From Hyphomicrobiales bacterium (GTDB lineage Bacteria; Pseudomonadota; Alphaproteobacteria; Rhizobiales; JAJFHB01): 49,407 bases of DNA. The position numbers and the translations under genes are program-made. Each line of letters starts with the position of its first letter. The first letter of the stretch is position 1. Where the stretch lies: the NCBI GenBank assembly GCA_021775625.1, contig JAJFHM010000115.1, forward strand, positions 1 to 49,407, given 5' to 3'. Shown piece by piece: positions 7,227 through 20,402 of the stretch. Below the pieces are notes generated by a model. It was not told where the DNA came from, did no database searches, and saw nothing but the letters and a program-made list of their open reading frames with translations.

Positions 7227-8282
7227 ATGAAAACATTCAGCTCCTCAAGCGGATCGCCAACGCTCGTCGACTTCGTTCTCGTGCCGCGGTTCAACATGAT
7301 GGCGCTGACGGCGACCATCGAACCAATGCGCATCGCGAATTACCTCGCACCGGAAAGGCTCTATGAGTGGCACTATCTATCCGCTGAAGGTGGTGGCGTA
7401 GAGGCAAGCAACGGCATGGCGCTCGACACCATTCCGGTAGCAAAAAGAGTGGTCTCAGCCAGCGTGATATTTGCCTGCGGCAGCTGGGGTTGCGAACACT
7501 ACGAGAGCCCGGTGCTGTTTAACTGGTTGCGCCGGCAGGGGCGCAAAGGGGTTATACTGGGCGCCCTGGAACAGGGGGTTTATCTGCTTGCCCGGGCCGG
7601 CCTGATGTCCGGCCGGCGGGCGACCACACACTGGTCGTGCATCGCCGGCTTCGCCGAGCAGTTCCCGAAGATCTCGGTCAGCGAGCAACTCTTCACGGAA
7701 GACGGAAATCTGATCACCTGCGCAGGCGGCACTGCCGGCGTTGATCTGATGCTGCACCTGATTGCCCGTCAGCATGGCGATCAACTGGCCTCGGAAGTCG
7801 CCGACCAGGCTGTTCATTATCCGATCCGGCAGGCCGATACGCTGCAACGCCACACGCTCGGCGGAGCCACGGAAGATGTCCACCCGGACGTCAAGGCGGC
7901 GATCGACCTGATTGAAGCCAACATCGAAGAACCCTTGTCGGTTCCAGAGATCGCAGCAGAACTTGGAATTTCGCAGCGCCAGCTTGAACGGGTCTTCCGC
8001 CGCCATATGGGATGTTCGACGGTTCAGTTCGCCAGGCTCATAAGATTGCAGTATGCCCGGGTCCTCCTCACCAGCACCCGCATGTCGATCCGGGAAGTGT
8101 CAGCGGCCAGCGGATTCAACTCCATGTCGTATTTCTCGCAGAGCTTCGTTCAATGCTTCGGCAAGAGGCCGAGCGAGTATCGTTTGGCATGGCCTGACGA
8201 TGAGCTCGCGCCGGCCTGGCCGGGGACCGTGTTCTCTTTCACCGCGAACACCAAAATTACCTCCGAATCAAGCGCCGGCTGA
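7227..8282 (+). CDS. GlxA/CdhR/GbdR-type transcriptional regulator (DJ-1/PfpI-like domain plus AraC HTH)
   Basis: N-terminal [23 protein letters not shown] (GATase1-like sensor domain) and C-terminal AraC HTH ([23 protein letters not shown]...[11 protein letters not shown]). Divergent from the BKACE operon. Start taken at the ATG at 7227. Confidence 0.85.
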
Positions 8283-8510
8283 GCCTGCCGGCGCCGAATC
8301 GACCCGCACGGCTCCGGCCCCGCATCGTTCCTGTTTGGCAAGCACTTTCTGACTGATTTCCGCCGGAAAACTCCATTTGCGGGACGATCTTAACCAGCGC
8401 CACCAAATCGCCTTTTACCATCCGTGAAATCACCACAAGCCGTGCAACCGCGCGCCCAACTTGGGCGCTAGCACTGAGGCAGGGATGCAGTTAGGGGAGA
8501 TAACGGTCAA

Positions 8511-10892
8511 ATGCGCCCAATCAAAGCTTCAGTCATAGCGTGTCTTTCGCTTGGAGGAGCGGTGTGTCTTTACGCCGCCGATCTGATGCCGACGACTGAT
8601 AACGCTCAAGCCGGCGAAGAAATGTCGAACACGGCACAAGACAAACCTCAGCCCACAGGTGAGGATGCGCTCGCGGCACGGCTCCGTGCGTTCCTCGAAA
8701 CAAAGGAAAGCACCTCCAAGAAGGGCGACCTCAAGAGCTCTGAAGATGACGCTGCTTCCACGCCTGCTGCGGTCGAGACCGAGACGGACGACGACGCGTT
8801 GGACGCGGCAGTAGATCCAGAAGACATGGTTGAGGACGATGCTGAGGAAAGCGAAGAGGCATTGCTTGGTGAAGAGGCCGATGAAGATACGTCGGCCGAT
8901 GAAACAGCATCTGAAGACGCCGACGACGAAGAGGGTTTGCTCGCCGACGATACGGTGTCCGAAGAGACAGATAGCGACGAAGACTTGCTCGCGGACGATA
9001 CGGAAACGGAAGCAACTGAAGATGACACCGAACTGTCGGACTTGCCTGACGACGAGGACGACACCGAGGAGGACACAAACACCGAAAAGGCCGACGTTGA
9101 GGACGACAAGAAAGACAAGACGGTCACCGCGGACGCCGAACATCTGAACCTGTTTCTGGAAAACCGCTACCCGTCCGCCAACACATGCGGCGTGTGTCAC
9201 CCCAAGCACTATGACGAATGGTCGGTGTCGCAACATGCCTACGCGCAGATGAGCCCGGTCTATCTTTCCTTGAACAACCGGATCAACGAACTCTCCAACG
9301 GCTCGAATGGCGACTTCTGCCTGCGCTGCCACAGCCCGGTCGGCGCCAATCTTGGCGAAAGTTCCTTCATGTCCAATCTGGACCGGCACCCGACATCGCG
9401 CGAAGGCATTACCTGTGTCGTGTGCCACCGCATCAGCAAGGCATACAACAAGGCAAGTGGCCGGCTTGCGCTCGTCGAAGGCGGGTTGACCGACCCGGTG
9501 TTCGGGCCGACCGGCAATGACGGGCTGCAGGAGGTTCTGGCCAAACCGGAAACCTTCCGCGTCGTGACCGACCCCGACGAACCCGGACGCCAGATTCACG
9601 GCGAAGCGAAACTTTTCGATCCCATCACGACGCCGACGTTCTGCGGCTCATGCCACGACGTGACATTGTTCAACGGATTCCGGCTTGAAGAGGCGTTCAG
9701 CGAGTACCGCGTGTCGCCGGCAGCGGCCGAAGGCATCACCTGCCAGGATTGCCATATGGGCAAGGTGCAGGGCAAACCGTCGGGTTACGAGCAGGGCCCC
9801 GCAGCGATCGTCGGCGATGTCCCGACCAAGATCCGCAAGATCACCAGCCATCTGTTCTCCGGGCCGGATTATTCTCTTATTCATCCGGGCATTTTTCCGC
9901 ACAACGCGGAAGCCGCAGAGTTCAAGACGCTGCGCGAATGGTTGCAATTCAAGCACAAGGAAGGCTGGGGCACGGACAAGTTTGAGAATTCAGCGCCGGA
10001 CAATTACAAATTCCCGGAAACCTGGACTTCGATCGACGACCGCTACGATGCCCGCGAGATTCTCAACAAGCAGTTTGAGAAGCTGGAGCTGGCCCGCAAG
10101 AAGCGGTTGGAAATCCTCCGCATCGGCTTCCTTCTGGGCGATGTGGTTCCCGAACGCGCCAGCGAGAACGGCCTCTCGTTCCGGGTTCAGGTCAAAAACG
10201 GGACCAATGGCCACAACGTCCCCACCGGCTTCACCGGAGAACGCGTCATCTGGCTCGACGTCACCGTAACTGATGCCGAAGACAGCGTTGTTTTCCGGTC
10301 CGGCGACCGTGACAAGAATGGCGACCTGAAAGACGGGCACTCGTCATATGTCCATGCCGGCAAGGTCAAACGCGACAAGTATCTGTTCTCTTTGCAGTCG
10401 ACCTTTGTGGTGCAGAACGGACGTGGCGGTGAACTCGAACAGGTTATCCCGATCCCCTACCCGTCCTTTGCATTGCCGCGGGTTCTGCCATCTCCCAATT
10501 CGCTTATCTTCACTGGTGAGCCGGCGACCGAGCGCAATCACAAGAAGGGCATCGAACCCCTGGGCGAACGCTGGGCCTCTTACAAGGTCAGCCGCAACCA
10601 GCTGACCGGGAAAGGGCCGTACAAGGCGACCGTGAAACTGCGGGCGCAGGCGGTACCGGTCAACCTGCTGATCGCGATGCAGAATGTCGGCTTCGACTTC
10701 GGCATGACGCCAGCCCAACTTGGCAGAGAACTGGTTGCCGGGACACAGACGTTGTGGACGAAGGAGCTGACGTTCGATGTTGCGTCTTCGCTCACTCCGG
10801 TCGCAGCAACCACGTTCGATGCCAAGCCGGATGGCCCGATCAGCATCATCCCGACCCACCGCGCCAAAAAAAGCGAAATCGAACTCAAGTAA
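8511..10892 (+). CDS. Secreted pentahaem c-type cytochrome with a long N-terminal D/E-rich tract and a haem-free C-terminal domain
   Basis: Signal peptide MRPIKASVIACLSLGGAVCLYA. Five CxxCH motifs (CGVCH, CLRCH, CVVCH, CGSCH, CQDCH). Acidic tract at about residues 77-199. C-terminal ~330 aa have no haem motif (GHNVPTGFTGE...). AGGGGAGA lies upstream of the ATG. Confidence 0.85.
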   Translation: MRPIKASVIACLSLGGAVCLYAADLMPTTDNAQAGEEMSNTAQDKPQPTGEDALAARLRAFLETKESTSKKGDLKSSEDDAASTPAAVETETDDDALDAAVDPEDMVEDDAEESEEALLGEEADEDTSADETASEDADDEEGLLADDTVSEETDSDEDLLADDTETEATEDDTELSDLPDDEDDTEEDTNTEKADVEDDKKDKTVTADAEHLNLFLENRYPSANTCGVCHPKHYDEWSVSQHAYAQMSPVYLSLNNRINELSNGSNGDFCLRCHSPVGANLGESSFMSNLDRHPTSREGITCVVCHRISKAYNKASGRLALVEGGLTDPVFGPTGNDGLQEVLAKPETFRVVTDPDEPGRQIHGEAKLFDPITTPTFCGSCHDVTLFNGFRLEEAFSEYRVSPAAAEGITCQDCHMGKVQGKPSGYEQGPAAIVGDVPTKIRKITSHLFSGPDYSLIHPGIFPHNAEAAEFKTLREWLQFKHKEGWGTDKFENSAPDNYKFPETWTSIDDRYDAREILNKQFEKLELARKKRLEILRIGFLLGDVVPERASENGLSFRVQVKNGTNGHNVPTGFTGERVIWLDVTVTDAEDSVVFRSGDRDKNGDLKDGHSSYVHAGKVKRDKYLFSLQSTFVVQNGRGGELEQVIPIPYPSFALPRVLPSPNSLIFTGEPATERNHKKGIEPLGERWASYKVSRNQLTGKGPYKATVKLRAQAVPVNLLIAMQNVGFDFGMTPAQLGRELVAGTQTLWTKELTFDVASSLTPVAATTFDAKPDGPISIIPTHRAKKSEIELK

Positions 10893-11004
10893 CCACGCGC
10901 ATCCAACCCCAACGGACAGCATTCAGGCTGTCCGACGGGGCGGCCGCGTCACAGATTTTCCCGCCAGTTTGGTGGGCCCAGATCCAGAAGGATATCGCAG
11001 AGCC

Positions 11005-12630
11005 ATGAAAAGAAAGAACGGCCGAAGCTTTGTGCATCACACCTCAATTGTATTGGCTACAGCGGGCATGGTGCTGTGTATTTCCGGCATCGCGACCGCC
11101 GGCGCATCCGAAAGCGAAACCGAACCATGGTACAGCTGGTTCTGGCCGCTCGGTGAAAAGCAGGAAGTCGAGGAACTCAAGGACGAATATGTTCCGTTCC
11201 GGACTGAACGCGGCTCCACGCCCACACAAACCGAGGACGGCGAAACCACCATCACGGCGGAGAGCACCTGGTACTCAACCTTGTTCTCGCAAGGCGGAGA
11301 TCAAGACCGGCTCAAGGAAGACTTCAAACCTCTGGATACGTCCACGCGCAACCTGCCGCCGAGACCGACACTGTTCGCGGAAATAGGCGACGGGTTCCTC
11401 GATACCGGTCAGCTGGATGCGGGCTTTGAGGTTCCCGTCCTGGGCGCTGTCTGGCAGCCAAGGCTGTGGTCCTACTTCATTTATCGGACGGCGATCCAGT
11501 CCTTCGACAATGGCGCCCCTGGCGTCGAACGTGAGACCGAGTGGGCGCATCGTCTTGACCTGTTCGTCAATCTGCAGCTGACCGGCACAGAAAAGGTCGT
11601 GCTCGGGCTCCGGCCGTTTGACAACAATCGGCCGAACCAGTTCACCAGATACACCTTCTCCGGGATCAATGAAGGCTTCAACGATGAGTTCAACTACATT
11701 CCCGAAACTCTGTTCTTCGAAGGCGATCTGGGCAGCCTGTTTCCGGTGTTCGACCGGCGCGGTGTAATCCCGCTCGACTTCGGCTTCACGGTCGGGCGCC
11801 AGCCGATCACCTTTCAGGAAGGCATCCTGATCAACGACACAGTCGATGCGTTCGGCCTTATCCGCAACAATATCCCGGTTCCAGGGTTTTCCAATTTCCG
11901 CGTCTCTGGCATGTGGGCGTGGAACCGCCTCGACCGCAACGACATCGCCCGCAACTCGGATGAAGACATGTTCGCGCTGTTCGCCGCCGCGGACGGCCAC
12001 GTCAGCACCTACAATCTGGATATGATTTACGTTCGCGACGATGGCAATGGAGATGGCTTTTACGTCGGCGCATCCGCTATCCAGCGCATCGCCGCCCTCG
12101 ATGGAATGAGCACCGCATTCCGGGTCAATGCCTCCTTCGCACTGGAAGACGAAATCGCGGGAAACCCCGGCAATACTGTTGGTGACGGTGTTCTGCTGAC
12201 GGCGGAATTCTCCAAACATCCGCATGGTTCAGACGACATCGTTTACTTCAATCCGTTCCTCGCCATCGGCAATTTCACCCAGGCCGGACGCGAGCCGGTG
12301 GTCGGCGGCCCGCTGGCCAACACCGGCATACTGTTCGCCTCGCCCGCGCTGGCAAACTACGGGGCCGAACTCAATCCGTTTACCGATGACGACGTCGGCG
12401 CCGCCTTCGGCTACCAGGCATTCTGGGACAACAACCGCCGCAACCTGATCCTCGAGATCGCCGGCAAGCACAGCTATTCCGGTCAGGGCTTCGACACGCT
12501 CGGCTTCGGGCTGCAGTTGCAGCAGGCGGTTGGCCGGCACGTGCAGCTAACGTTCGAGGCCTTCTATGCCCTCAACGAAGACCGCGGCGACGGCGCAGGC
12601 GCCCGCGCGGAAGTACAGGTCGTGTACTGA
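11005..12630 (+). CDS. Outer-membrane beta-barrel (porin-like) protein
   Basis: Signal peptide (MKRKNGRSFVHHTSIVLATAGMVLCISGIATAGA), alternating hydrophobic beta-strand patterning throughout, and a C-terminal ...ARAEVQVVY with an aromatic last residue, typical of BAM substrates. Start set at the ATG at 11005; the track ORF from 10777 is over-extended. Confidence 0.7.
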   Translation: MKRKNGRSFVHHTSIVLATAGMVLCISGIATAGASESETEPWYSWFWPLGEKQEVEELKDEYVPFRTERGSTPTQTEDGETTITAESTWYSTLFSQGGDQDRLKEDFKPLDTSTRNLPPRPTLFAEIGDGFLDTGQLDAGFEVPVLGAVWQPRLWSYFIYRTAIQSFDNGAPGVERETEWAHRLDLFVNLQLTGTEKVVLGLRPFDNNRPNQFTRYTFSGINEGFNDEFNYIPETLFFEGDLGSLFPVFDRRGVIPLDFGFTVGRQPITFQEGILINDTVDAFGLIRNNIPVPGFSNFRVSGMWAWNRLDRNDIARNSDEDMFALFAAADGHVSTYNLDMIYVRDDGNGDGFYVGASAIQRIAALDGMSTAFRVNASFALEDEIAGNPGNTVGDGVLLTAEFSKHPHGSDDIVYFNPFLAIGNFTQAGREPVVGGPLANTGILFASPALANYGAELNPFTDDDVGAAFGYQAFWDNNRRNLILEIAGKHSYSGQGFDTLGFGLQLQQAVGRHVQLTFEAFYALNEDRGDGAGARAEVQVVY

Positions 12631-12681: not shown

Positions 12682-13971
12682 ATGACGACATCCACAATCG
12701 CGGAAATTGGCGGACTGATGATTATCGCAGCCGTCACCCTTCAATTGCTGATGGGCCTCAGGGCCATGCGGGCACGCGCCTCCGAGCGCGGCCGGCATGG
12801 GTCTGCGATCACAGAGTTTAGCGTAGAACCAGCCGGACGGCCGGAGACCGCCACAACGTCGAACAGTGTTGAAACCGTTCTGTGGATGGGGAAAAGAAAG
12901 TTCCGCATTGCCAGGCGGATGTATGAAAACGAATCTCAGGACATCTGTTCTTACTATCTGGTGCCGCTGGACGAACGGGCCTTGCCCGGCTTTCGCCCGG
13001 GACAATTCCTGACCTTCGAGTTGCCGGTTCATGAGCAAGAGCATCCCGCGATGCGATGCTACTCTCTCTCGGAAAGCCCGACGGTGGATGAATATTACCG
13101 TATCTCGGTCAAGCGGTTGCCGGCTCCGGCAAACGCGCCTGAAAACACCCCGCCAGGCTTGTCATCCGGTTTTTTTCACGATGTTGCCCTTGAGGGCGAC
13201 ATCGTCGAAACGTTTGCTCCCACGGGCCAGTTCTGTCTCGATCAAGGCTCGAACCGTCCGGTTGTCCTGATCGCGGGAGGCGTTGGCCTGACACCTCTTT
13301 TGAGCATGCTGAACTGGCTCATCGACACTCGATCCGAGCGCGAGATCTGGCTGTTCTATGGGGTGCGGAACAGGTCCGACCACATTATGTATGACCACCT
13401 GAAGCGGGTGCGAAAAGAATGCCCGAACGTCAACATGTACATCTCCTACTCGCAGCCGACGCCAAACTGCCGGCCACGCGTTGACTACAATGTCCACGGG
13501 CACATAACAGTCGATCTCATACAATCTGTGCTGGGTGGCGATCAGTACGAATTTTACCTTTGCGGCCCAGCGGCCATGATGAATTCAATCCGGTCTGGCC
13601 TGACGGAGTGGGGCGTGCCGGCAGACGATATCCGCTCGGAAGCCTTTCAGGCACCCGCGCCTTCAAAACAGACATCCGTGGCCGACGGGACGATCGAGAC
13701 TGACGAGGAGCCAGGGGCATTTGAAGTAAAGTTCTCCCGCTCAGGCCGCATCCTGCGCTGGAACAAAGGCGTCGACACATTGCTCGAACTTGCCGAATCC
13801 AACGGTATCAAGATGCCCTGCAGCTGCCGTTCCGGGAACTGTGGTACGTGTCTCACGAGGCTCACCCAGGGAACCGTCGATTATGTTCACCCGCCGAGCA
13901 AGGAACATGAAGACGGCTCCTGCCTGCCCTGCATCGCGCGGCCGAAATCAGACCTCGTGCTCGATCTGTGA
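12682..13971 (+). CDS. Membrane-anchored ferredoxin-NAD(P)H reductase-type flavoprotein with a C-terminal plant-type [2Fe-2S] domain
   Basis: N-terminal TM helix (IAEIGGLMIIAAVTLQLLMGL) followed by a basic stretch, FAD motif RCYSLSESP, NAD(P) motif GGVGLTPLLSM, and a C-terminal C-x4-C-x2-C...C (CRSGNCGTC...CLPC). Confidence 0.85.
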   Translation: MTTSTIAEIGGLMIIAAVTLQLLMGLRAMRARASERGRHGSAITEFSVEPAGRPETATTSNSVETVLWMGKRKFRIARRMYENESQDICSYYLVPLDERALPGFRPGQFLTFELPVHEQEHPAMRCYSLSESPTVDEYYRISVKRLPAPANAPENTPPGLSSGFFHDVALEGDIVETFAPTGQFCLDQGSNRPVVLIAGGVGLTPLLSMLNWLIDTRSEREIWLFYGVRNRSDHIMYDHLKRVRKECPNVNMYISYSQPTPNCRPRVDYNVHGHITVDLIQSVLGGDQYEFYLCGPAAMMNSIRSGLTEWGVPADDIRSEAFQAPAPSKQTSVADGTIETDEEPGAFEVKFSRSGRILRWNKGVDTLLELAESNGIKMPCSCRSGNCGTCLTRLTQGTVDYVHPPSKEHEDGSCLPCIARPKSDLVLDL

Positions 13972-13998: not shown

Positions 13999-16293
13999 TT
14001 ACCTGGGAACTTTGGTGTTCATGATCGGAGCCGTCACCCCGTCTACATGGTAGTCATGACACGTCAGGCAGCCATCATTTGCGGCGTCCGCCGTGTGACA
14101 GGCCGTGCAGACGTCTTTGCCCACGGGTTTGAAATTGGACGCGAAGGTCAAGGGATCGTAATCTTCGAAACCCTTTTGATAGGCTGCGGTCTGATCCAGC
14201 TGATGGCAGCTCAAACAACCTTTTTTATCGGGAAAGCCGAAATGCGGTTCATGCATGAACCGCGTGAAGCGGCCCAATTTGGCGGCCGATGTCGCCGTCC
14301 CCCAATTCACCTGCCGGGCGTCGGCGTTGTCTGCATCAATACTGTGGCACTTCGTGCACTGGCCTTGAGCATTCTTGTCGGTCAACACCGAAAACACGGC
14401 AGTTGCGGCAGGCGATGAACGCCCTGCGGACAGGTCGAACCACGCTTTAAAGAAAGTGTCGGCATGACCCACCGGCTTGTAGAGAACGGAATATTCCTGG
14501 CGGTACCAACCGCCGAACTCGGCCCAGGTCTGGGCGTCGACATTCAGAGGAGAGGCTGCGGGTTCCTCCTCGACGTCGTCCTCCTCAGATGAAACCTCCT
14601 CGCCGCTCGCCGTGTCGTCTGAAGCGGCCTCCTCCAGATCGTCGCCGTCGTCTTCGGACAGGATATCGGCGTCATCGTCTGTATCGGTACTGTCATCATC
14701 CGCGGTTGCGGCACTATCGGGGTCCTGTCCCGCGGTGGGTTCGCCAAGACCCGACAATTCGGTTCTGAACAAAGCGTCGGTCGAGTCCACCGCGCGGGCA
14801 AGATCACCCGCATCAATAGGGCGATGCGCCATCAATTCCGCTTCAACATCGGGCAACCAGTCGCGGATGGCGCCTGCGACCACGTCACGGGGCAGACTTG
14901 CGGTCAGCCTGGTGAGGGTGTCCGGGGCCATATTTCCGGCGTTATCAAAGCGCTTGAGCACCATGCTCGGTCTGACCGCCGAAAGCGCGTAGATCAGGGT
15001 CTTTATTTCCCAGGCAAACCACTCGACCGCGCGAAGCTCGCTCTCCGACGCCCCGTTCAGGTTCAAAAGATCCAGTTCGTTCACCAAGGCCAGCAAGGCC
15101 CTGCGATCTTCGTTCCAGCCGAGCAGCATGGTCGCAAACGGCGTTACGTTCGCTTCGGAGGCTTCCGGCCATTTTCCAACGTCAATGTTCCTGTCCGCGA
15201 GGGTTTGGACGTCGAGACCGGGAAGTGTGAGAAACTCAATACCCTGCGGCCCTGAAAGCCGTTCAGTGCCGGCAATCTGGTGCAGGTGACAGGAAGAACA
15301 GACCGTCTCGAACGGTTTGACGTTCATGTTCTTCTTGTCGGCGGCGAGCGTGTGGCAATCTGCGCAGGCCTCGGGAACCTGCTGAGATTGATCCTTCCTG
15401 GCGCGGGTCTTCTCGAAATGCTCTCCGAAGTGAGAGGCATGATCGAAGTTCGTCCGGGTGCGGCGGGCAAAAGGGTACTTGCGAAAACCGGGGTGCCCAT
15501 CCTCAAAGCTTGTGAACTGCGCTGCATGGCAGCCCTGACACCGATCTGCTGAAACCGCCGAAAGATCGGCAGCCACGCCACGGTGTTCCTTGTGACAGGA
15601 GGCGCAGAAAATACCATCCCCCACCGCTCTCGCAGTTGGGAATACCGCGTTGCCGACCCAACGCGACCAGGGGGTGCCTGTGGCGGTTTGCCCGGAACGG
15701 TTCCGGTCGGTCAGCGCTTTCAGCTTGTCCAGAGGCTGGCCGTGTGGTTGCAGAGCGTCTGTACTGAGCTGATGGCAGGACAGGCAGGCCTTGCTGTCTT
15801 GGCGTTCTGACGACGGCTTCACAATGGCATGGAGCCAGGCAAACCCTCCTTCAGTGATGTTTGAATGACAGGTGCCGCACTCTGCAATCGGGCTGTGCCC
15901 GGCGTGCATCGGACCAGGCACGATGATCATGGCGTCGCCGGCATAGGTCAATGCCAGCACGAATACTGCGAAAATCAGCGCCGCAGTCCAGCGTGTCACG
16001 GCAGTGCGCACTGACCGCAGGCTCCGGATCGGTCGGCACGGAAGTATGGCATGGGCACACATGCCGTCCTCACCCGGCCCCTCGGGACACGGCCCTCCCC
16101 TTGATGCCGGGCGGCGACACCGCCAGCGCTCGGCTGCCATTGCCGGCACGCACTCGAATGTCGCCTGGCATCCGCCGCGGTGATCGGGGCCCATGGGACA
16201 GGCGCGGCCCGCAGCCGACCTGCCGCAAATCCACTTGTCGTCGGATCTGCCGAACAAACCACCGCCGGTGATTGAGCCAAAGGAGAACGTCAA
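13999..16293 (-). CDS. Membrane-anchored decahaem c-type cytochrome with an N-terminal Cys-rich module and an internal acidic linker
   Basis: Ten CxxCH motifs: six in residues ~139-336 and four in ~646-746. TM/signal-anchor RWTAALIFAVFVLALTYAG. D/E linker at about 524-578. TTG start 3 nt after the upstream stop. An alternative ATG at residue 78 would remove the Cys-rich part. Confidence 0.8.
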   Translation of the reverse strand: MTFSFGSITGGGLFGRSDDKWICGRSAAGRACPMGPDHRGGCQATFECVPAMAAERWRCRRPASRGGPCPEGPGEDGMCAHAILPCRPIRSLRSVRTAVTRWTAALIFAVFVLALTYAGDAMIIVPGPMHAGHSPIAECGTCHSNITEGGFAWLHAIVKPSSERQDSKACLSCHQLSTDALQPHGQPLDKLKALTDRNRSGQTATGTPWSRWVGNAVFPTARAVGDGIFCASCHKEHRGVAADLSAVSADRCQGCHAAQFTSFEDGHPGFRKYPFARRTRTNFDHASHFGEHFEKTRARKDQSQQVPEACADCHTLAADKKNMNVKPFETVCSSCHLHQIAGTERLSGPQGIEFLTLPGLDVQTLADRNIDVGKWPEASEANVTPFATMLLGWNEDRRALLALVNELDLLNLNGASESELRAVEWFAWEIKTLIYALSAVRPSMVLKRFDNAGNMAPDTLTRLTASLPRDVVAGAIRDWLPDVEAELMAHRPIDAGDLARAVDSTDALFRTELSGLGEPTAGQDPDSAATADDDSTDTDDDADILSEDDGDDLEEAASDDTASGEEVSSEEDDVEEEPAASPLNVDAQTWAEFGGWYRQEYSVLYKPVGHADTFFKAWFDLSAGRSSPAATAVFSVLTDKNAQGQCTKCHSIDADNADARQVNWGTATSAAKLGRFTRFMHEPHFGFPDKKGCLSCHQLDQTAAYQKGFEDYDPLTFASNFKPVGKDVCTACHTADAANDGCLTCHDYHVDGVTAPIMNTKVPR

Positions 16294-16296
16294 GGC

Positions 16297-17109
16297 TTAA
16301 GGCACTCCCGCGGTGTAGGCGTAAATGACGGCGACGTGGAGCACGGCAAGCACGATCATTCCGTAGGTCGCAGGGATATGGACGAACAACCAGAGCCGCA
16401 GCAGCAGCTCATATGCATATCGGTTGTTCAGTGTGTTCTTCTCTGTAAGCACCTCCCGCATAGCCTGCATGGTTTGCTTGCCGCCATCGTCGAGACGTTT
16501 TTCAAGGCTGTCCATCTCCTCGCACAGGCGCCTGAACGTGGAAGGCGAACGCCGAAAAAGCCCAACGGTGCTGCTTGGGCCATTGAGAAATCCGGATAAC
16601 GTGTTGGCGTAGAAGTCGGTGATGCTCGGCGATGCGGCAACGCCTCCCACCCCCAGCACCAAGTCGTCGGCACGCTGCAGCAATTCAGTTTGCGCTGCCG
16701 GAAAATCATCAAAGGCAGTTCCGCCCCGGTTCTGTTCCAACTTTGACGGAACGCTGCGTGTCAGGTAGGCGCCGAATACGCCGCTCACAGCCAGGATCAC
16801 GAACAGTGCCCACAGTGCGGTTTCGAATATACCGGTCGGCCAGGCATATTGAGTGTGCAACGCAAACGCGGCCAGCAGGAAGAAACCTGCATAGATGTGC
16901 GCCCGCATCCACGACGACACATTGCCCAGGGGCAGCAGCGGGAACTTCCGGCGCAGGCTGAACAGCACTTGAACCCCACACCCCAGGAGCAGAATCCAAC
17001 CATCCAGAAAGCGCGCATCGCGCAGCGAAGCGTCGTAAACGCCGACCAGCCAGAACATCGCCGCAACGGCGAGAGCGGTCAGCAGGCTGTGTCGTATGAG
17101 ATCGCGCAT
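16297..17109 (-). CDS. Integral membrane protein (about 5 TM) with two H-x13-H pairs; candidate dihaem b-type cytochrome
   Basis: Hydrophobic helices; HIYAGFFLLAAFALH and HIPATYGMIVLAVLH sit on two helices predicted to run in the same direction; a ~120-aa soluble loop lies between TM4 and TM5. ATG at 17107-17109 is preceded by GGAG. The gene overlaps the upstream gene by about 31 nt. Confidence 0.65.
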   Translation of the reverse strand: MRDLIRHSLLTALAVAAMFWLVGVYDASLRDARFLDGWILLLGCGVQVLFSLRRKFPLLPLGNVSSWMRAHIYAGFFLLAAFALHTQYAWPTGIFETALWALFVILAVSGVFGAYLTRSVPSKLEQNRGGTAFDDFPAAQTELLQRADDLVLGVGGVAASPSITDFYANTLSGFLNGPSSTVGLFRRSPSTFRRLCEEMDSLEKRLDDGGKQTMQAMREVLTEKNTLNNRYAYELLLRLWLFVHIPATYGMIVLAVLHVAVIYAYTAGVP

Positions 17110-18743
17110 AGCCACTCCGAAAGGCCATTGGTGTCGCGCAGATCGACCCGCACAAGCGCGTCGTGCGGACAGGCGCGCTCACAGGCCGGGCCGCCCTTGC
17201 GGCCGGCACACAGGTCGCATTTTTCCGCCCGCTGAATTTGAACGCCATCCTCGTCGACCAGAAACGCTCCACCGGGATCGCGCACGTCAGCCATTTGAAT
17301 ATTGTCATAGGGGCACGCCTTGGCGCAGGCCGCACAGCCGATGCAGGTTGCCTCATCGATCACCACGGTACCGCTCACTTTGTCACGGTGAATGGCACCG
17401 GTGGGACAGTCGACCAGGCAAACCGGATCGAAACAATGCATGCAGGCCTGGGCAACCATCAGGTTGTGATGTGTGGGGCCTTTTCGGGCAAAACGCGCAA
17501 CACCGTCATGTGCCGCGGCGCAGGCGCGGACGCAGTCGTCGCAGTTGACGCAGCGTTCGGTGTTTATCGCCATCGCCATGGCCCCGTTGGTGTAGCGGTT
17601 GTCGACAAAAAACTCCGTGTAGGACCGCGGCAGGTTCGCCTTGGCGGATGGTTTTGCCGAACCGAGCGTCGCCCTGGCCTTGCGGGCGTACCTCTCCGGC
17701 AGATCGGACAGCACGTGCGCCGCAACGATCTGTGTCGGGATCCGCACCAGATCGGCATAGCCGACCGCACGAAAACCGTTCGGGAACTTGAGCTCGCCCT
17801 GCCCTTCAGCGGTGCCCAGAATTTGCGGCAGGCCGATGATGCCATTTTTCGTGATGTACCCCGTCGTCCGTTCCTCATGTCCGAGCCGTTCGGTGACACG
17901 GATGGTTCCTGAGTGGACCAGCAACAGACCATCGAGATAATGATCCTGCTCGGCAATAATGGGTTCCCGCTCGATGGCCGGGACATGACCGTTTGCGCTG
18001 GAAGCGGATTTTTGGAACCGGTGTGTCCAGTCAACATCGCCATAGCGCTCGAACGTTGCGTTCTCGGCAATCTGAAGCAGTGTCCGGTCATCGACATTCG
18101 CAAACAACGAGCTTCCCTGAAGGCAGTTCCACAAGCCCCACTGACGATACTGATCCTGCATTCTCTCGCGGAACGGATCCGACCAGCGCATGAGCTCCCG
18201 TAGTGCCGGCCACCGCAGCTCTAGGAGCAGTGTATCGTCGTCTTCAACCATGACCGAGGCGGTTCGCGGAGATCTCGAAAATGCACCCAGAACACCGAAC
18301 AGATCATAACGGCCAAGGGACAGCACCGGAGGGCTGCAGACGCCGGGCTTGAGCGATGGATCGGGGTCCAACCCTTGGTTCCTGCGCGCCGTTTGCCGCA
18401 GACCCGTGAGTGCGCGAAGCAGCGATCCGATCCGGGCTGCCGGTTTGGATCCTTCACTGCTCCGCACCGGCATCAGGCTCTTTACGTTGCCCCTGAGAAC
18501 GACGAATACAGAGGTGCCGTACTCACCGGCGCGATAAACCATGTCGCCTTTTGAATAGCGGACAACGCGGGTGTCGTTGGCAATGATCTCGGACAGCGGG
18601 CTTGCGTCCGGGAATGCGTCGGCATCGACATCTTCAAACAGCGGAATGGAAAGCATGGCCTTCACATCCTGCGTCGGCACCGGCGTTCCCCCGAATGGTA
18701 TCGCCCACTTCCTTGGTCTTTCCGTCTGCTGGACCCTCACCAA
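17079..18743 (-). CDS. Cytoplasmic protein with two cyclic-nucleotide-binding-like domains fused to a DmsB/NrfC-type 4x[4Fe-4S] ferredoxin module
   Basis: cNMP-like beta-roll regions (VVRYSKGDMVYRAGEYGTSVFVVLRGNV; LLLVHSGTIRVTER). Four Cys groups: CVNCDDCVRAC, CMHCFDPVCLVDCP, CIGCAACAKACP, CDLCAGRKGGPACERACP. No Tat or Sec signal. GGAGG lies upstream of TTG/GTG starts at 18743/18740. Confidence 0.8.
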   Translation of the reverse strand: MVRVQQTERPRKWAIPFGGTPVPTQDVKAMLSIPLFEDVDADAFPDASPLSEIIANDTRVVRYSKGDMVYRAGEYGTSVFVVLRGNVKSLMPVRSSEGSKPAARIGSLLRALTGLRQTARRNQGLDPDPSLKPGVCSPPVLSLGRYDLFGVLGAFSRSPRTASVMVEDDDTLLLELRWPALRELMRWSDPFRERMQDQYRQWGLWNCLQGSSLFANVDDRTLLQIAENATFERYGDVDWTHRFQKSASSANGHVPAIEREPIIAEQDHYLDGLLLVHSGTIRVTERLGHEERTTGYITKNGIIGLPQILGTAEGQGELKFPNGFRAVGYADLVRIPTQIVAAHVLSDLPERYARKARATLGSAKPSAKANLPRSYTEFFVDNRYTNGAMAMAINTERCVNCDDCVRACAAAHDGVARFARKGPTHHNLMVAQACMHCFDPVCLVDCPTGAIHRDKVSGTVVIDEATCIGCAACAKACPYDNIQMADVRDPGGAFLVDEDGVQIQRAEKCDLCAGRKGGPACERACPHDALVRVDLRDTNGLSEWLCAISYDTAC

Positions 18744-18790: not shown

Positions 18791-19795
18791 TCACTTCGCC
18801 GGCTTACCTTTGTATTTGTTTGGTTTCGGGATCATCGCGTCGAGTTTCGCGAAGCGTTTCCCGTCATACCGTGTGACCAGCGCCACCGCCTCAACGGCGA
18901 TCTTGTCGGCCACCCTTGTCAGCACCTTGTCGTTGTTGAGCTTGAGCTTTGCCTTCTTCGACAAAGCCACAATTTTCTTGAGCTCTTCGACCTTCGGAAG
19001 CGCCTTCGCGATCGCCCTGAGCTTCTTGCGCGCCTTCGCTGCCCGCTTTGCCATCTTGACCGCGTATTTCTTTTTCTTGGTTGCCTTGCCGACGGCCCGA
19101 ATGGCGGTTTCGTATTCAACAATTGCGCCCACAAGGAACATCATCCGCTTGCGCGCAGGGGTTGCCTTCTTGTTCTCTTCGCCCTTCGTGTACCAGACAT
19201 TGTGGCGCACTTCGCCCTGTGACCAGGACACCAGCTCAAACTTGCTGCCGGCGGGATGTCCGCCCACGTTGACCAGCTTTTCCTGCGGCACAACGTGGCA
19301 GCTGTAACAATTCTTCGCCAGCTTGTACAAGGCACTGGGCCTGATCAATCCGAGCTTCTCGGACTTCTGCCAGCGCGCCCTGGCCTGGGCTTTAGATTCA
19401 AGCTCCTTCTTCTTGTTGCCGCTAAATTCCGCGTGAACTTTGATCCAGTCCTTGCCTTCCGAATGACACAGCTCGCAGGAAATCCCCGCAATCGGTTCGG
19501 TCTTCTTGCCCTTCGTCTGATTTGTGAAATGGCAGTTCAGGCACAGGCTCTCCGACTTGATGCGCTTGATCTTCATTTTCCTGGAGATCTTTTTGGCCTG
19601 TTTGCTGCGCGGCATTTTGCGGAAGGTCGTGAAGTGGTGCGTGCTTCTCCACACTGTCGCCTCGTCCCGGTGACATTCCGCACATTCGTCAGGCCCTTCA
19701 ATTTTTTTCGGATTTGTATCCGCACTTGCCCCGGTGCCCGACACCAGCGCGATGATGGCGCCGGCCACGGCCATTTTCATAATCTGAAATTGCAT
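18791..19795 (-). CDS. Secreted tetrahaem c-type cytochrome (c554-like) with a strongly basic K-rich C-terminal region
   Basis: Signal peptide MQFQIMKMAVAGAIIALVSGTGASA. Four CxxCH motifs: CAECH, CLNCH, CELCH, CYSCH. The C-terminal ~130 aa are about 30% K/R by hand count. Confidence 0.85.
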   Translation of the reverse strand: MQFQIMKMAVAGAIIALVSGTGASADTNPKKIEGPDECAECHRDEATVWRSTHHFTTFRKMPRSKQAKKISRKMKIKRIKSESLCLNCHFTNQTKGKKTEPIAGISCELCHSEGKDWIKVHAEFSGNKKKELESKAQARARWQKSEKLGLIRPSALYKLAKNCYSCHVVPQEKLVNVGGHPAGSKFELVSWSQGEVRHNVWYTKGEENKKATPARKRMMFLVGAIVEYETAIRAVGKATKKKKYAVKMAKRAAKARKKLRAIAKALPKVEELKKIVALSKKAKLKLNNDKVLTRVADKIAVEAVALVTRYDGKRFAKLDAMIPKPNKYKGKPAK

Positions 19796-19962: not shown

Positions 19963-20226
19963 CTAGTTCAGGCCGAGCAGACCCATAGCTTCTGCCAGGG
20001 CCTTTACGGCTTCGCCGTGATTGCCGCTTGTGTGCAGTTCCTCTCCCTGCCTGCGCAGAGCCTCCACTTTCGTCCGATCGGAGGCACTGAGTTCCGCAGT
20101 CGGAAGGGCTGCATCAATTTTTCCCATATCGACCGGGCAATGAAATGCTGATGCCGACACGGTCATGAACAACAACACCATGAGCGCGAACACGGTTGCA
20201 GTCGCAATAAGCGGACGCGTAAACAT
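19963..20226 (-). CDS. Small secreted hypothetical protein (87 aa)
   Basis: ATG at 20224-20226 with GGGAGA 8 nt upstream. Signal peptide MFTRPLIATATVFALMVLLFMTVSASA; the mature part is helical-looking (FHCPVDMGKIDAAL...). First gene of the minus-strand cytochrome operon. Confidence 0.6.
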   Translation of the reverse strand: MFTRPLIATATVFALMVLLFMTVSASAFHCPVDMGKIDAALPTAELSASDRTKVEALRRQGEELHTSGNHGEAVKALAEAMGLLGLN

Positions 20227-20402
20227 TCTTCGATCTCCCTGCTGAAACAATCCTGTCTCCCCAGACCTTGCCGGCCCGTTTGATTTTCATTGCACAGAGA
20301 ATTCCGGAGTTTCGTGTCCGGAGTGGCTTCGAAACCGGTCAATTTGAAGGAATCATTGCGTTAAAAACGGGGCAACCGATTCGGGGTTAAACGCAATCCC
20401 GC

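Follow-up and report, generated by a model that had tools for sequence, protein, structure and literature searches.

This study focused on ptdF, a gene on the reverse strand (16297..17115) of contig JAJFHM010000115.1 from a Hyphomicrobiales bacterium, of which the whole stretch from position 1 to 49,407 (49,407 nucleotides; the window) was analysed. Judged by its motifs and its neighbours, the product can be identified as PtdF, the inner-membrane protein conserved in the PCC4 cytochrome clusters, and it is predicted to be a five-helix, di-haem b cytochrome. It probably acts as a wire through the cytoplasmic membrane, fed by the reductase PtdC and the iron–sulfur (Fe–S) protein PtdE and reducing the decahaem cytochrome PtdG, so that electrons would flow outwards. 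The bis-haem reading is supported by the present analysis but was already published in 2017 as a bioinformatic prediction (He, Barco, Emerson & Roden 2017, Front Microbiol 8:1584, PMC5566968), and in that respect PtdF of the window is another example of the prediction and nothing beyond it. What is added here is the scale of conservation, an argument on the direction of flow, and a region with eight cysteines at the N-terminus of PtdG.

Identity of PtdF

The PCC4 clusters were described as consisting of a porin, cytochromes with four, five and ten haems, a conserved inner-membrane protein and further redox proteins (PMC5566968). For the inner-membrane protein, the same authors listed five transmembrane (TM) helices, an SGxxG motif on TM4, which is a signature shared by the inner-membrane proteins of PCC3 and PCC4, and the motif W-x3-H-x13-H on both TM3 and TM5; two b haems were inferred by sequence analysis, and a parallel was drawn to the ferric reductase domain and to cytochrome b (PMC5566968). 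All of these features are found in PtdF of the window. Hydropathy, charge and an AlphaFold2 (AF2) model give five TM helices, W-x3-H-x13-H is present on TM3 and TM5, and SGxxG lies on TM4, its serine (S111) being invariant in an alignment of 31 sequences. The surrounding cluster specifies cytochromes with five (8511..10892), four (18791..19795) and ten (13999..16293) CxxCH motifs, along with an inferred porin. PCC4 Subgroup II carries a gene for a pfam13247 Fe–S protein upstream of the inner-membrane protein gene (PMC5566968), and in the window the gene that overlaps the start of ptdF encodes PtdE, which matches Fer4_11 (PF13247) with an E value of 4.3e-12. Since all the PCC4 motifs are present together with PCC4-type neighbours, the open reading frame (ORF) is, by every sequence-level feature, PtdF, the PCC4 inner-membrane protein. 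A first-pass annotation, made from the DNA sequence alone, had described a membrane protein of no obvious family; this no longer holds, given the match to the published signature (PMC5566968).

The name PtdF comes from a 2023-24 preprint that renames the cluster ptdABCDEFG and calls the membrane protein "ferric reductase-like" (bioRxiv 10.1101/2023.11.21.568154). Its available text lists the same seven components as the cluster in the window: a pentahaem cytochrome, a porin, an FAD/NAD(P) oxidoreductase, a tetrahaem cytochrome, an Fe–S protein with cyclic-nucleotide (cNMP)-binding domains, a membrane protein and a decahaem cytochrome. That likeness is one of component description and not of sequence. 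The same text gives no analysis of the histidines or topology of PtdF, and calls its function "completely unknown"; nor was text on PtdF found in the supplements available with it. Under either name, PCC4 inner-membrane protein or PtdF, no experimental work was found in the literature.

Histidine Pairs and Membrane Topology

The coding sequence of ptdF specifies 272 amino acids from a GTG at 17115, or 270 from an ATG at 17109, and a relative with 94% identity (P0001) starts at the position equivalent to the ATG. Only five histidines occur in the protein, and four of them form two pairs, H73 (codon 16897-16899) with H87 (16855-16857) on helix 3, and H246 (16378-16380) with H260 (16336-16338) on helix 5. 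The first-pass annotation had called H-x13-H twice, on helix 3 and on the last helix, and this was exact to the codon, with 13 residues between the members of each pair (IYAGFFLLAAFAL and IPATYGMIVLAVL). Two disjoint H-x13-H pairs arose in only 0.076% of 200,000 composition-preserving shuffles of PtdF, so the pairs are not an effect of composition.

Conservation of the four histidines had been suggested at the outset as a check on a haem-binding role, and they proved to be nearly universal across a large family. A search of a collection of 5.8 billion proteins returned 55 homologues, all unnamed, and a PtdF profile run against 1.84 billion cluster representatives matched 4413 proteins at E<=1e-3, of which 542 reached E<=1e-30. 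The best 150 of these matches listed were orthologues only, and so the search did not bridge to other families. Across the 31 aligned homologues, which extend down to 21% identity, 14 columns are invariant, including the four histidines, G39, G77, S111, G112, G115, W242 and T250. When pooled with cluster representatives at 50% identity (203 sequences in all), H73, H87, H246 and H260 are conserved at 100, 100, 99.5 and 100%, the tryptophans of the two W-x3-H motifs (W69 and W242) at 97.5-99.5%, and the glycines G39, G77, G112 and G115, which sit on or beside the histidine helices, at 99.5, 96, 100 and 99%, respectively. No other histidine, cysteine or methionine of the family reaches 90% conservation; H186, for one, stands at 65% among the 31 aligned sequences. 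Genes for relatives were identified in at least 574 species-level genomes, the nearest genome representative being a Hyphomicrobiales metagenome-assembled genome (MAG) with 50% identity, and relatives with the same gene set occur in Hyphomicrobiales, Verrucomicrobiota, Gammaproteobacteria and a Flavobacteriaceae MAG, as well as on a contig that carries Planctomycete-type genes.

From the N-terminus, hydropathy and family charge counts place TM1 at residues 10-27 and TM2 at residues 39-54 (together 16954..17088). Conservation, the AF2 model and the published motif place TM3 at residues 66-88 (16852..16920), with W69-x3-H73-x13-H87, and TM5 at residues 237-268 (16312..16407), with W242-x3-H246-x13-H260; TM4, at residues 96-121 (16753..16830), carries the SGxxG motif as S111-G112-V-F-G115. 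Between TM4 and TM5, the model and the charge pattern indicate an all-helical insert of about 115 amino acids (residues 119-236, or 122-236 when counted from the end of TM4; 16408..16752). The AF2 model has a mean predicted local distance difference test score (pLDDT) of 88.4 and a predicted template modelling score (pTM) of 0.79, with helices at residues 2-29, 34-57, 66-88 and 96-121 followed by a long one at 210-268, which is hydrophobic over its last 30 or so residues; hydropathy agrees both with these helices and with an all-helical soluble segment.

Over the family, the mean net charge is +2.1 at the N-terminus, -0.4 in the loop between helices 1 and 2, +3.4 between 2 and 3, and -0.4 between 3 and 4. 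This bias indicates a topology of five TM helices with the N-terminus inside and the C-terminus outside, and TM3 and TM5 therefore cross the membrane in the same direction, from inside to outside. In the predicted topology, 7-8 residues separate H73 and H246 from the cytoplasmic face, and H87 and H260 are close to the periplasmic one. The first-pass annotation had likewise drawn both histidine helices from cytoplasm to periplasm, one histidine of each pair near the inner face and the other near the outer, and a soluble loop before the last helix on the cytoplasmic side; the family-wide charge bias bears out all of this, with matched depths for the two pairs and the insert on the inside. The wider reading of a bis-haem protein thus gains four conserved histidines, parallel helices and matched depths, from which haem binding can be inferred.

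The insert has conserved residues of its own (Y169, L173, K226, L229 and D230) and is a candidate docking surface for PtdE, PtdC or both. Docking of the upstream Fe–S protein on this loop had also been proposed in the first-pass annotation, and is favoured by the overlap of the two genes in the loci examined and by two natural PtdE-PtdF fusions, while the role of the loop in docking would be a further step. In the fusions (P0087, 843 amino acids; P0155, 856 amino acids) cNMP_binding and Fer4 domains are joined to the N-terminus of PtdF, an arrangement consistent with a cytoplasmic N-terminus of PtdF and with a physical complex of the two proteins. A sequencing frameshift is a possible origin of any single fusion, because ptdE and ptdF overlap by 4 nucleotides in some loci. 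An annotated fusion of the Fe–S and inner-membrane proteins was also noted in Oceanospirillum beijerinckii (PMC5566968).

Relation to Known Haem b Proteins

In the ferric reductase domain, TM3 and TM5 each carry a histidine pair and each run from inside to outside; the spacing is 13 residues (12 on TM5 in some members), and the two haems are stacked across the membrane. PtdF has two histidine pairs on TM3 and TM5 in the same direction, and further resembles the ferric reductase domain of NOX, FRE and MsrQ proteins in having its N-terminus inside and its TM4-TM5 loop in the cytoplasm. In NOX and FRE proteins the electrons come from a cytoplasmic NAD(P)H/FAD module, as proposed here for PtdF. 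There are also clear differences: the domain has a six-helix core whereas PtdF has five helices and ends directly after TM5; PtdF carries the helical insert of about 115 amino acids in its TM4-TM5 loop; and, unlike NOX and FRE, its reductase would be a separate 2Fe-2S protein with a four-cluster Fe–S protein interposed. With these provisos, the ferric reductase domain of NOX/FRE may be taken as the closest working analogue.

In the cytochrome b of bc1 and b6f, helices B and D cross the membrane from P side to N side. The comparison with bc1 cytochrome b made in the first-pass annotation is therefore good for spacing only, since these helices run in the opposite direction to those of PtdF, and no sequence similarity was detected; for the same reason of helix direction the ferric reductase domain is the closer analogue. 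PtdF and cytochrome b share H-x13-H on two parallel helices, the histidines of which in cytochrome b ligate two stacked b haems, and conserved glycines on flanking helices, but cytochrome b is a protein of eight helices with two quinone sites. Membership of the bc1 family was rejected, as the histidine helices of PtdF run from N side to P side and neither PtdF of the window nor any of 138 family representatives has a Pfam match to Cytochrome_B.

Across the 138 representatives, the recurrent weak Pfam matches are to haem b membrane families only. DUF4405 (PF14358) is matched by 23 of them at E<=0.01 (best E 2.3e-6), and a PF14358 match is precomputed for one relative (P0019); Ferric_reduct (PF01794) gives weak matches in eight (best E 2.6e-4) and Ni_hydr_CYTB (PF01292) in six. 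PtdF of the window has no Pfam match to Ferric_reduct and no match in NCBIfam, and its Ni_hydr_CYTB score, 15.6 bits, is below the cut-off of 30.1. A relationship to the ferric reductase/DUF4405 group at the superfamily level is plausible from these profile matches, while membership in PF01794, PF14358 or PF01292 is not demonstrable. Membership of the cytochrome b561/Ni_hydr_CYTB family was tried and rejected on the sub-threshold score, a non-significant hhalign comparison with YodB and a different histidine pattern; a NarI-type arrangement of histidines was also considered and rejected.

A DUF4405 protein has been shown experimentally to bind haem b (PMC11334425). The DUF4405/PepSY_TM/FezC cytochromes have four central histidines, and DUF4405 is the best Pfam match over TM3 of PtdF; they differ in being described as proteins with six TM helices that are linked to ApbE flavinylation and not to clusters of multihaem c cytochromes (PMC11334425). 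PtdE and PtdF together recall NarH-NarI and FdnH-FdnI, in which a four-cluster, ferredoxin-type subunit docks on a di-haem b membrane subunit and connects it electrically to a soluble redox partner. Unlike PtdF, NarI and FdnI have a different histidine arrangement and a quinone site, the cluster of PtdF has no molybdoenzyme subunit, and PtdE, unlike the NarH and FdnH modules, carries cNMP-binding domains.

Direction of Electron Flow

In the model that we consider probable, each haem b would be bound by one histidine from each helix, the H73/H246 pair holding the haem at the cytoplasmic side and the H87/H260 pair the one at the periplasmic side. The two haems would lie about 21 Å apart along the membrane normal, stacked as a wire across the cytoplasmic membrane, with the Gly-rich TM2 and TM4 making room for the porphyrins. 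On the inside, PtdC would reduce PtdE, where present, in an NAD(P)H-dependent reaction, and PtdE, docked on the cytoplasmic insert of PtdF, would feed the inner haem. On the outside, the outer haem would reduce the membrane-anchored decahaem PtdG, which could pass electrons on to the tetrahaem PtdD and the pentahaem/porin pair PtdA/PtdB. The present data show the histidine motif and its conservation, the topology, the linkage of the genes and the fusions; in this scheme we infer the binding of haem, the contacts between the proteins, and a flow that is outward and independent of quinone.

Three considerations favour outward flow: an FNR-type reductase is kept in linkage with PtdF even as a domain-permuted version, the membrane potential assists the outward movement of electrons, and PtdF has no conserved polar residue that would point to a quinone site. 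The first of these draws on clusters of the Hyphomicrobium type that have no PtdE (L058, L045, L050, L051, L065, L072 and L082). In Hyphomicrobium sp. CS1BSMeth3 (L058), the gene before ptdD (7584..8810, forward strand) encodes a protein with Fer2, FAD_binding_6 and NAD_binding_1 domains in that order, which is permuted relative to PtdC of the window, where the FNR module precedes Fer2. Because clusters of this kind keep a permuted Fer2-FNR protein while lacking PtdE, the NAD(P)H-type reductase remains linked to PtdF. They correspond to PCC4 Subgroup I, described from Hyphomicrobium as having no Fe–S gene and a reductase with rearranged domains (PMC5566968). The PtdE-less variant, the permuted reductase and the PtdE-PtdF fusions were all recovered independently in the present study, and agree with that earlier description (PMC5566968). 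As a cultured strain, Hyphomicrobium sp. CS1BSMeth3 offers a practical host for experiments.

A number of points weigh against PtdF being an outward di-haem wire. No experiment showing haem in any member of the PtdF family was found in the literature, and the matching of the histidine pairs comes from the predicted topology. The DUF4405 score of PtdF from the window, over residues 58-92 (the TM3 histidine helix), is 21.8 bits, under the Pfam cut-off of 26.7. A Foldseek search of the PDB with the full AF2 model gave nothing at E<=0.001, the top entries being unrelated helical proteins, and neither a profile nor a single-sequence search of PDB sequences found a match for PtdF. Comparison by hhalign of the PtdF family with the single sequences of Escherichia coli MsrQ and YodB gave no significant result, with alignment limited to the local W-x3-H...H motif, and comparison with an MsrQ alignment gave a probability of 0.4%; that alignment consisted of 12 sequences of low diversity (82-88% identical) and makes a weak profile, all sequences from the MsrQ homologue search sharing more than 77% identity with the query. 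As for direction, the argument comes solely from which partners are present and from thermodynamic reasoning, and the opposite flow, into the quinone pool, was proposed by He et al. 2017 (PMC5566968).

That published model is the alternative that survives best, although we think it unlikely. Electrons from an extracellular donor such as Fe(II) or Mn(II) would pass through the porin to the periplasmic cytochromes, all three of which were placed in the periplasm, and on to a membrane cytochrome b that reduces quinone (PMC5566968), a direction opposite to the export from NAD(P)H favoured here. It accords with the occurrence of PCC4 in Zetaproteobacteria and in a Hyphomicrobium from a pyrite-oxidising enrichment (PMC5566968), with a PtdF relative in 'Bacterium MnTg02' (L070), and with the weak Ni_hydr_CYTB matches of the family. 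It leaves unexplained why a cytoplasmic, four-cluster Fe–S protein should be translationally coupled, or even fused, to PtdF, and why an NAD(P)H-type FNR/2Fe-2S reductase should be retained, even in permuted form. Besides histidine, glycine and tryptophan, the membrane part of PtdF has no conserved polar residue for a quinone site, which is weak negative evidence against the published model.

Considerably less probable is an import of electrons along the whole chain, from periplasmic cytochromes through PtdF and PtdE to PtdC, making NAD(P)H or reduced ferredoxin in a lithotrophic reverse flow. The chain of cofactors is reversible in principle, and ptd genes are reported in nitrite oxidisers of the Nitrospirales in the available text of the preprint (bioRxiv 10.1101/2023.11.21.568154). 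Such a flow would have to oppose the membrane potential, reduction of NAD(P)+ would by established bioenergetics call for an external donor of very low potential, and the PtdF family has no proton-coupling element. A role for the histidines without haem, in binding another metal, in structure or in sensing (for example, a cNMP-linked redox sensor), is the least credible of all and was rejected: it may draw on the lack of any haem measurement for the family and on the cyclic-nucleotide-binding domains of PtdE, but histidines 14 residues apart on a helix are separated by about 21 Å, too far to share a single metal ion, the parallel helices, identical spacing and nearby conserved glycines are the classic bis-haem pattern, and all the partners of PtdF are electron-transfer proteins.

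If PtdF does hold two b haems, it provides the membrane-crossing step of a very widespread cytochrome system, with more than 4000 protein clusters. Whether electrons are exported from NAD(P)H or imported to quinone would decide between a device for reducing metals or other oxidants and one for oxidising Fe(II) or Mn(II), and the organisms concerned matter for marine and freshwater cycling of iron, manganese and nitrogen. More speculatively, and with confidence short of even, the PCC4/Ptd system as a whole might be a quinone-independent export route built as a split NOX-type oxidoreductase (PtdC to PtdE to PtdF to PtdG), in which the cytoplasmic eight-Cys domain of PtdG would aid assembly and the cNMP domains of PtdE might gate throughput. 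Quinone-independent export of this kind would, if true, be at odds with the published view that Fe(II) oxidation feeds the quinone pool, and electrons from cytoplasmic reductant would have a new way of reaching the cell surface in Hyphomicrobiales, Verrucomicrobiota and Gammaproteobacteria, as well as in the Nitrospirales and Planctomycetes in which the available text of the preprint reports ptd genes (bioRxiv 10.1101/2023.11.21.568154).

Partner Proteins PtdE and PtdG

The gene ptdE (17079..18743, reverse strand) encodes 554 amino acids, with cyclic-nucleotide-binding domains and a C-terminal 4Fe-4S module recognised by Pfam and NCBIfam. Its stop at 17079 lies within ptdF, so that the overlap of the upstream Fe–S gene with the start of ptdF, already seen in the first-pass annotation, is correct. 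The module has four complete four-Cys motifs at residues 398-408, 434-446, 467-477 and 509-525 (17169..17552), which read CxxCxxCxxxC, CxxCx4CxxxCP, CxxCxxCxxxCP and CxxCx8CxxxCP, a set that is typical of four-cluster subunits of the HycB/DmsB/NarH type, and its relatives in the PDB are HycB, PsrB/NrfC, NarH and FdnH. The available text of the ptd preprint gives PtdE two 4Fe-4S clusters, versus the four Cys motifs found here. No twin-arginine translocation (Tat) signal was found in PtdE. At the N-terminus, two or three cNMP-binding-like domains can be discerned.

PtdG (13999..16293, reverse strand) is a decahaem c cytochrome of 764 amino acids with ten CxxCH motifs and one TM helix at residues 101-121 or thereabouts (about 15931..15993). 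Ahead of the helix is a Cys-rich region (residues 1-95; 16009..16293) with two repeats of W-x-C-x8/9-C-x2-G-P-x3-G-x-C-x5/6-C-x-P. Its cysteines, C23, C32, C42, C48, C59, C69, C79 and C86, are 100% conserved among 61 loci. Since R/K residues flank the TM helix, the eight-Cys region is predicted to be cytoplasmic; it may be a Zn or Fe–S site, or a docking domain. A region with at least eight cysteines is present in 60 of 72 loci that contain PtdE, and is absent from six of eight that do not. No Pfam or PDB match was found for it, searches of PDB sequences with PtdG gave nothing, and a homologue search with the Cys-rich N-terminus returned none. PtdG here thus has a TM anchor and an N-terminal Cys-rich region, compared with the periplasmic decahaem protein described earlier (PMC5566968), and the region appears to be unreported both there and in the available text of the ptd preprint, which likewise describes PtdG as periplasmic.

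The ptd Gene Cluster

In the window, the genes form two convergent units, ptdABC on the forward strand and ptdDEFG on the reverse strand, whose stops are 27 nucleotides apart (13971 and 13999). On the forward strand, ptdA (8511..10892) specifies the pentahaem cytochrome, with five CxxCH motifs, and ptdB (10777..12630) a putative outer-membrane porin of 617 amino acids that has no Pfam match, its role being taken from the literature. It is followed by ptdC (12682..13971), in which Pfam and NCBIfam recognise an FNR-type FAD/NAD(P) module and a C-terminal 2Fe-2S ferredoxin after an N-terminal TM helix. On the reverse strand, ptdD (18791..19795) encodes a c554-like, periplasmic tetrahaem cytochrome with a signal peptide, assigned by Pfam, NCBIfam and its CxxCH count, and ptdG starts 4 nucleotides past the stop of ptdF. 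The genes flanking the cluster are unrelated ones of coenzyme A metabolism and flavoproteins. A scan for promoters and terminators, and inspection of the sequences preceding ptdD and ptdA, gave nothing informative.

The convergent layout is common to many Hyphomicrobiales loci. Loci of the Rhodospirillales type are collinear, several having the exact order A to G, and verrucomicrobial loci have the order C-E-F-G, with A and B not detected within 10 kb. Association with ptdF over the 85 loci compared is closest for ptdG, which directly follows it in 84, and next for ptdE, which lies upstream in 74; ptdC and ptdD are each nearby in 70, while the pentahaem gene is found in 45 and the putative porin in 46.

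Some smaller features of the cluster were also seen. The longest ORF for ptdB shares 116 nucleotides with the end of ptdA, and about 77 residues along it an internal Met is followed by a signal-peptide-like segment (...VLATAGMVLCISGIATAGA); ptdB therefore probably begins downstream of the start of the longest ORF. PtdB ends in ...VQVVY, and termini of this kind are typical of outer-membrane barrels. Just upstream of ptdD is an ORF of 95 amino acids (19963..20250, reverse strand) that has no Pfam match and begins with a hydrophobic, signal-like segment. PtdA begins MRPIKASVIAC..., in which V-I-A-C may be a lipoprotein box.

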